64,000 nt of DNA from the sequence record PV763136.1. One strand, written 5' to 3'. The notes below the pieces were generated by a model. It was not told where the DNA came from. It was given only the letters and a program-made list of their open reading frames with translations, and searched no databases. The stretch comes from Escherichia phage vB_EcoM_YN3. Below, in pieces: positions 56,710 through 57,097 of this stretch. Every line of letters begins with the position of its first letter. The first letter of the stretch is position 1. The translations under genes were made by a program, and so were the position numbers.

Positions 56710-56738
56710 TTGACACAACGCTTCAGCTATAGTATTAT
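56710..56738 (+). promoter_or_regulatory. consensus sigma70-type promoter upstream of the HPF-like gene
   Basis: TTGACA - 17 nt - TATTAT. Confidence 0.7.
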
Positions 56739-56785
56739 TGTTTTCAAAGAGAGAGTTATTCCCTCTTCTTTAAAAGGAACACGTT

Positions 56786-57097
56786 ATGCAAATTGAGATC
56801 ACTGGCAACGTAGAAATCACCGAAGGTATGGTGTCTTTCATTTCCCACAAAATGTCAAAACTGGAGCGTCTACATCCTTCTGTAAATCATGCACGTGTAA
56901 GTGTAAAAGTTGAAAATGATCACCAGGAAGTTATGGCGTTCATTTTTGACACTTCTGGAAAAGAAGTTATTGCCAAAGCTAAAGGCAGTGATGCTTACGA
57001 GGCAACTGACCGTATGGTAGATGTTGCAGCACGTCAGCTGGCTAAATGCGGTGGAAAGAAAGGTAAAGGGAAAGGAAAGATTGACTTTGGAGAATGA
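56786..57097 (+). CDS. ribosome hibernation factor HPF / RaiA-family protein
   Basis: MQIEITGNVEITEGM...KLERL...ARVSVKVE...SGKEVIAKAKGSDAYEATDRMVDVAARQLAK follows the HPF/YfiA pattern along its whole length. Confidence 0.7.
   Translation: MQIEITGNVEITEGMVSFISHKMSKLERLHPSVNHARVSVKVENDHQEVMAFIFDTSGKEVIAKAKGSDAYEATDRMVDVAARQLAKCGGKKGKGKGKIDFGE

Follow-up and report, generated by a model that had tools for sequence, protein, structure and literature searches.

What is a gene of the ribosome hibernation family doing in a bacteriophage genome, and how closely would its product act like the bacterial factors? We addressed this question for a stretch of 64,000 nucleotides from Escherichia phage vB_EcoM_YN3 (PV763136.1; the whole stretch is called the window, and coordinates count from its first letter). 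Here, a reading made from the sequence alone had proposed a ribosome hibernation factor of the HPF/RaiA family with its own promoter. Phage-borne genes of the translation machinery are rare, and the HPF gene is a conserved gene of Vequintavirus, a genus that turns up in many isolations, with E. coli O157:H7 and gut-associated strains among its hosts (PMC3606486, PMC6969025). If the protein acts on ribosomes, it would make it tractable to study how a virus tunes its host's ribosome dormancy switch, and such an action, if true, would bear on phage infection of non-growing bacteria.

The gene itself is already known: annotations in rV5-like coliphages date back to 2008, and a published observation followed in 2019. 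The GenBank record of phage rV5 (DQ832317) carries it, and RefSeq lists it as gp139/ORF144 with a noted similarity to a Klebsiella 'sigma(54) modulation protein'. Other records call it 'hpf' or 'RaiA', and 'sigma 54 modulation factor' and 'ribosome hibernation factor' are also in use. [quoted passage not shown] (2019, Nat Commun), who grouped it with gammaproteobacterial HPFs (PMC6375957). When rV5 HPF was produced from pBAD in E. coli, its peptides were detected in the crude extract. The protein was undetected in 70S and 100S ribosomes isolated by sucrose gradient under high-stringency salt, and the abundance of 100S was unchanged, with few 100S being present in those cells anyway (PMC6375957). 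The authors did not regard this assay as conclusive, naming growth phase, a true loss of binding and stripping by salt as possible causes, and they proposed that a viral HPF may compete with the host factor (PMC6375957). The functions offered in the sequence-only reading, namely silencing or stockpiling of ribosomes and competition with the host factor, are hypotheses that were already in the literature (PMC6375957). Mathieu et al. (2020) reported the gene in five further rV5-like phages (PMC6969025), and in the literature searched we found no functional follow-up on a Vequintavirus HPF after 2019-2020.

Labelling of the gene is uneven. Several records (OR062525/OR062528/OR062530, MT884009) mislabel it as 'ATP-dependent protease La Type I'. 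In phage nom (L008 856-1055), the label 'sigma 54 modulation factor' sits on an unrelated downstream 89-aa ORF (window 57235-57504) that has no Pfam match.

As the discovery of the gene is not new, the remaining interest lies in the mechanism and in the remodelled ribosome-contact surface. The addition of the present analysis is an alignment-based account of which bacterial ribosome contacts appear retained and which replaced, together with the longer and variable Lys/Gly tail.

The phage protein is a diverged short-HPF-type member of the HPF/RaiA superfamily

The locus comprises the following features, all on the plus strand:

56710..56715, +: -35 hexamer TTGACA of a sigma-70-type promoter, the equivalent of rV5 P144; same hexamer in rV5
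56733..56738, +: -10 hexamer TATTAT; 17-nt spacer to the -35 hexamer, 11/12 consensus matches over both hexamers
56739..56785, +: 5' leader; Shine-Dalgarno-like AAGGA at 56774-56778, 7 nt to the ATG
56786..57097, +: CDS of the 103-aa short-HPF homologue, orthologue of rV5 gp139/ORF144; ATG start, stop codon included
56786..57049, +: S30AE core, residues 1-88, beta1-alpha1-beta2-beta3-beta4-alpha2 (AF2 pLDDT about 90; Foldseek)
57050..57094, +: Lys/Gly-rich C-terminal tail GGKKGKGKGKIDFGE, residues 89-103, encoded by a purine-rich GGNAAR-like repeat

The full 103-aa product is MQIEITGNVEITEGMVSFISHKMSKLERLHPSVNHARVSVKVENDHQEVMAFIFDTSGKEVIAKAKGSDAYEATDRMVDVAARQLAKCGGKKGKGKGKIDFGE, in agreement with the sequence quoted earlier. 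That reading had recognized an HPF/RaiA protein from a whole-length alignment by eye, and profiles, sequence matches to solved structures and the predicted fold all agree with it. The search against the S30AE/HPF family gave a significant match to Pfam PF02482 (Ribosomal_S30AE; E = 4.2e-13, 50.3 bits vs a gathering cutoff of 23.7) that spans residues 3-88 of the protein and positions 1-83/88 of the profile. TIGR00741 (HPF/YfiA) scored 50.1 bits vs a cutoff of 40.9. The enterobacterial short-HPF equivalog model NF007780 scored 57.6 bits, under its cutoff of 125, which marks the protein as a diverged homologue rather than an NF007780 equivalog. This score was nevertheless above that of the RaiA equivalog model NF007654, which reached 20.2 bits and likewise stayed under its cutoff, here 158.

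Among solved structures, the best matches by sequence were those of E. coli HPF (2rql, 4v8h and 6h4n; E about 1e-12, residues 1-89). Structure prediction returned the HPF/RaiA fold. A Foldseek search of the PDB with the predicted model gave the best rmsd values, 1.1-1.7 A, to the HPF structures 4hei, 2rql and 6h4n, with V. cholerae and E. coli HPF ranking first, and all 36 of the 36 PDB matches with E <= 1e-3 were hibernation factors (HPF, RaiA, pY). In the AF2 model (pLDDT 84.5 overall), the core elements are E2-7, H13-29, E33-43, E46-55, E60-67 and H70-89. The Lys/Gly-rich tail noticed earlier is real; its pLDDT of 42-46 predicts disorder. The tail has a net charge of +3 over 15 aa and ends in IDFGE, and the charge of the core is similar to that of E. 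coli HPF. The predicted layout is a single S30AE domain with a disordered tail and without a C-terminal dimerisation domain, as in the short-HPF class (~95 aa). By profile and predicted fold, we securely place the phage protein as a short-HPF-type member of the HPF/RaiA superfamily that is an equivalog of neither E. coli HPF nor RaiA.

A near-consensus sigma-70-type promoter lies directly upstream of the gene

TTGACA-17-TATTAT (56710-56738) was found where the sequence-only reading had placed it, 48 nt upstream of the start of the HPF ORF and within an 82-nt intergenic gap (the preceding ORF ends at 56703). The matching site in the rV5 record is annotated 'Sigma70-type promoter; P144', with TATCAT as the -10 hexamer at the corresponding place. 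In the divergent lineage L002, whose HPF is 65% identical, TTGACA and the bases just upstream are kept and the -10 hexamer is AATTAT after TGC, while the leader sequence differs. A candidate regulatory hairpin in the 5' leader (56746-56771) was rejected, its stability being that of shuffled sequence (z = 0.91) and the leader being unconserved in L002.

Chance does not account for sites of this kind, which are a true feature of the genome: the window holds 14 TTGACA-N16-18-TANNAT sites vs 0.86 expected from shuffles, none of which reached 14. The orientation of these 14 sites tracks the local gene direction. Near-consensus sigma-70 sites occur, for example, at 7757, 21130, 21535 and 22148 on the minus strand and at 47404, 48795, 52413, 54248, 56710 and 61890 on the plus strand. 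For rV5, 33 sigma-70-type promoters were predicted in the genome paper, and the corresponding part of that genome comprises 88 ORFs, mainly small ones (PMC3606486). A second promoter-like site at 57081-57108 (TTGACT-16-TACAAT with an upstream TG, 10/12 matches) overlaps both the HPF gene, at its 3' end, and the start of a 33-aa hydrophobic ORF (57107-57208).

The claim that the gene has its own promoter stands insofar as a near-consensus site lies directly upstream; exclusive use of that promoter does not follow. The HPF gene lies within a long co-directional array in which we found no terminator that was convincing from about 52120 to 61701, so that it is likely also transcribed by read-through from upstream promoters. 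The nearest convincing terminator, at 61701-61720, has the same position relative to the HPF gene as the rho-independent terminator annotated in the rV5 record. Early expression would be inferred from the promoter type and the block of small genes.

Within this array, the genomic context gives no functional clue, as the neighbours are all of unknown function: a Pfam scan of ten neighbouring ORFs gave no matches, and PHROGs returned 'unknown function' families only. Tandem paralogues of phrog_5009, two clear members and one weak one, flank the HPF gene (55513-55740, 55730-55984 and 57596-57859). The family phrog_7379, of unknown function and with no Pfam match, likewise has two members, at 55997-56395 and 58196-58591. 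Elsewhere in the window, a cluster of six tRNAs is located at 20132-21071 on the minus strand; it includes a 99-nt tRNA-like gene (20377-20475) for which ARAGORN gives a four-base anticodon (atcc) and assigns no amino acid.

The gene is an old Vequintavirus gene under purifying selection

Over the 3 kb around the gene, the window is 96-97% identical to Escherichia phages DrSchubert, I29, PDX and rV5 and to about 115 other Vequintavirus records, and the HPF gene is present with an intact ORF in about 118 phage records. With tblastn, matches in the phage collection were limited to Vequintavirus save for one bacterial record. That record, AGRM01000002.1, is a 691-kb Salmonella enterica subsp. houtenae contig within the phage collection, and its match of 95% identity to E. 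coli HPF is chromosomal. Eighteen 'Campylobacter phage' records (GenBank MG065635-MG065690, host C. jejuni) are about 96% identical to the window region and contain the HPF gene unannotated; their C. jejuni host label looks doubtful.

A word-indexed protein search returned six close phage copies only. When 1.84 billion cluster representatives were searched exhaustively with phmmer, 42 matches reached E <= 1e-3, among them a single close relative (P0004, 64-67% identity); in this search nothing fell between the phage clade and the bacterial HPFs at about 44% identity or less. Of ten bacterial representatives whose cluster members were looked up, only a Thorsellia HPF had a name. P0004 is encoded at the syntenic position, in the same small-gene array, on contigs of up to about 137 kb, and marks a further Vequintavirus-like lineage that has diverged from the first.

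Among seven genus members, dN/dS was 0.05-0.17, indicating strong purifying selection on a functional gene; between the window and the divergent syntenic lineage (65% identity), dS was saturated and dN was about 0.3. The GC content of the gene (41.7%) equals that of the neighbouring ORFs, which argues against a recent import. We therefore rejected a recent horizontal capture from the host, considering this GC content and an identity of only ~40% to E. coli HPF.

Protein length varies through changes in the tail and, in V18, an extra Asn near residue 8: 99 aa in Murica (1-nt deletion), 103 aa in the window (6-nt deletion), 105 aa in rV5 and 106 aa in V18. In Murica (NC_041871; L006 656-700), a one-base deletion in an A-run of the tail repeat makes the protein end in GKGKAK at 99 aa. 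Either the IDFGE end is dispensable in Murica or this deletion is a sequencing error. The frameshifted and truncated Murica tail, along with the length polymorphism of the tail in general, could be taken to mean that a captured host gene is decaying here as a relic without function. However, the purifying selection effectively refutes this idea, and about 118 genomes carry an intact ORF, as does the 65%-identical lineage at the same locus, where the promoter is conserved as well. Judged from these sequence comparisons, the HPF gene is an old, ameliorated acquisition kept by selection, and neither a recent pick-up from the host nor a relic.

Part of the bacterial ribosome-contact surface is replaced

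In an alignment of the phage proteins with 40 bacterial representatives plus E. coli HPF and RaiA, we located the ribosome contacts of gammaproteobacterial HPF and RaiA that are described in the preprint by Beckert et al. (10.1101/382572) and in a further preprint (10.1101/2025.10.07.680626). The family hallmarks are all kept (T12, K22, K25, L26, G58, A63, D69, Y71, A73, D75, D79, R83, Q84 and K87). At the positions of the E. coli (Ec) contacts K26, Q29, R33, T53, H55, E60, H62, K80, R83, K87, K89, K91, K93 and H95, the window protein has K, R, S, F, F, E, I, V, R, K, G, K, G and G, respectively. Accordingly, Ec K26 (K25 in the window protein), E60, R83, K87 and K91 are kept, and Ec Q29 (R) and H62 (I) are conservatively replaced, the phage isoleucine resembling V62 of P. 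aeruginosa.

The remaining contacts differ. Ec R33, an E-site tRNA contact, is replaced by S; Ec T53, which contacts m2G966 in the platform, by F; and Ec H55, which contacts the C-terminus of uS9, by F or D depending on the alignment. From the 'strictly conserved' basic set of alpha2, three of five residues are kept (R83, K87 and K91), while K80 is V and K89 is G; V at position 80 also occurs in 3 of 42 bacterial representatives. The Ec K93/H95 end, which in E. coli HPF reaches E-site tRNA and stacks on G693, gives way to the GK-repeat tail ending in IDFGE. Both phage lineages have new beta4 lysines, K64 and K66. There are also conserved phage-specific patches that are atypical of bacterial HPF (LHP 29-31, DHQEV 45-49 and AKAKG 63-67).

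Between the two phage lineages, 5 of 13 bacterial contact positions were identical vs 56 of 78 positions in the rest of the core (Fisher p = 0.026, on a post-hoc list and with small numbers). This suggests that the classical ribosome-binding surface is perhaps not what selection maintains.

A proposed RaiA-like action on idle ribosomes and its alternatives

In the model that we favour, host sigma-70 RNA polymerase would transcribe the HPF gene from its near-consensus promoter, heading a run of small genes. [quoted passage not shown] Given the intact fold and these retained residues, docking in the A/P-site channel, where HPF and RaiA of bacteria obstruct the path of the mRNA as well as the tRNA sites A and P (10.1101/382572), is the most economical reading of the sequence. 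As Ec R33, T53, H55, K80, K89, K93 and H95 are replaced, binding would probably be weaker or more salt-labile than that of the host factor, and the published negative result argues likewise for weakened, or else altered, binding. The longer flexible Lys/Gly tail may compensate in part by following the mRNA/E-site path in the direction of the RMF site, towards which the RaiA tail is also reported to run (10.1101/2025.10.07.680626).

The outcome would resemble that of RaiA rather than that of HPF with RMF: idle 70S monomers would be held or protected with no drive into 100S dimers, and the phage protein would compete with host HPF, RaiA and RMF. This outcome is favoured by the lack of a dimerisation domain, by the unchanged 100S level upon expression in E. 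coli, as would be expected if the protein does not promote dimers (PMC6375957), and by the lack of an RMF-like gene, as tblastn gave no RMF homologue in the 64-kb window of the roughly 137-kb genome (E > 2). We assign a probability of about 0.5 to a RaiA-like outcome in which idle 70S ribosomes are held or protected and the host factors are out-competed; both the ribosome binding and its consequence are inferred here. Against it argue the failure of the only experiment on this protein to detect it in high-salt 70S and 100S ribosomes, the loss of T53, H55, K80 and K89, and the lower conservation of the contact positions.

The same observations can be arranged differently. A tentative alternative, raised by Mizuno et al. 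(PMC6375957), holds that the protein is an anti-hibernation factor: by transiently occupying the HPF/RaiA site, or by blocking RMF with its tail, it would keep ribosomes from being locked in 100S and free for phage mRNAs, as in stationary or defence-dormant hosts. The remodelled surface fits this idea, as losing the E-tRNA and G693 contacts (Ec R33, K93 and H95) would weaken stable hibernation, and so do the absence of an RMF homologue from the window and a tail that is longer than that of HPF, with the RaiA tail pointing towards the RMF site. Furthermore, host RMF is up in at least one anti-phage response, DRT2 (review PMC13434031). However, expression in E. coli left 100S levels without discernible change, even though few 100S were there initially (PMC6375957), and a sigma-70 promoter is not specific to stationary-phase hosts. 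A broader version, which we likewise hold to be possible but rather unlikely, is that the phage protein is no hibernation factor in the sense of the host and counters host-imposed dormancy, with reversible occupancy of the decoding channel, enabled by the remodelled contact surface and the Lys/Gly tail, excluding RMF, HPF, RaiA or toxins that enter the A site, so that ribosomes stay usable in starved or defence-arrested cells. About as doubtful is that the fold has been exapted, the protein being an HPF descendant that has given up ribosome binding for a non-ribosomal target. The negative ribosome association of rV5 HPF (PMC6375957) is what this predicts, and it would also account for the five substituted core contacts (Ec R33, T53, H55, K80 and K89) and the replaced K93/H95 end, for contact positions differing more between the phage lineages than any other part of the core, and for the phage-specific patches at 29-31, 45-49 and 63-67. 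Yet R83, which contacts m4C1402, is kept along with K87, K91, K26 and the entire set of fold-defining motifs, the charge of the core is E. coli HPF-like, and, as Mizuno et al. note, a hibernation factor that binds weakly should come off in a high-salt wash (PMC6375957). Weak Foldseek similarity to unrelated small phage inhibitors, among them T7 Gp1.2 and SPO1 Acb4 (TM 0.4-0.5), would illustrate a scaffold type that is used for other jobs, but these matches are non-significant (E > 1e-3), and we rejected an inhibitor function on this basis.

Considerably less probable is a role in host shut-off, in which an abundant early protein would block vacant 30S or 70S and suppress initiation on host mRNAs while phage mRNAs escape. 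The near-consensus host-type promoter implies expression upon DNA entry, and a block of the mRNA path and tRNA sites is what bacterial HPF and RaiA achieve; no mechanism that would exempt phage mRNAs is visible, though. HPF-family factors, moreover, bind idle and not translating ribosomes. Balon is the exception to this rule (10.1101/2025.10.07.680626). Ribosome profiles were also unperturbed by moderate expression in E. coli (PMC6375957). Taken together, we retain the RaiA-like holding of idle 70S ribosomes as the main reading.

Comparison with known hibernation factors

The closest known system is that of rV5. Its gp139/ORF144 (YP_002003641, ABI79209) is the orthologue of the window protein, with 95-98% aa identity, the same locus, P144 and the downstream 33-aa ORF. 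The window protein differs from it by three substitutions and lacks KV (6 nt) in the tail, which gives 103 vs 105 aa. A functional difference between the two is not expected.

Among bacterial factors, E. coli short HPF (YhbH) is the best match in both sequence and structure, with about 40-44% identity and a shared fold and length class. The two proteins have K26, E60, R83, K87 and K91 in common as well as the fold positions D69, Y71, D75, D79 and Q84, whereas the phage protein lacks R33, T53, H55, K80, K89 and K93/H95. The tails differ too, that of the phage protein being Gly/Lys-rich, charged +3 and 8 residues longer, and that of E. coli HPF carrying +2 over 7 aa. The residue-level comparison suggests that the phage protein does not simply reproduce what host HPF does. 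With E. coli RaiA (YfiA/protein Y), the phage protein shares the fold and a C-terminal extension beyond alpha2, but the two are only 25-26% identical, and the tail of RaiA, at 25 aa, is net acidic (-4) whereas the phage tail is 15 aa long and net basic. Considering this identity, the basic tail and the RaiA-model score far under its cutoff, the RefSeq name 'RaiA' is best read as a generic label.

Proteins with the S30AE fold are also found in the jumbo phages Cronobacter GAP32, Escherichia PBECO4 and Xanthomonas XaC1. At 110-130 aa, these are only 21-24% identical to the window protein, and the XaC1 protein is 34% identical to E. coli HPF. Their genomic contexts differ, with the XaC1 gene adjoining tRNA-processing genes. 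By sequence and context, the jumbo-phage HPFs are independent acquisitions.
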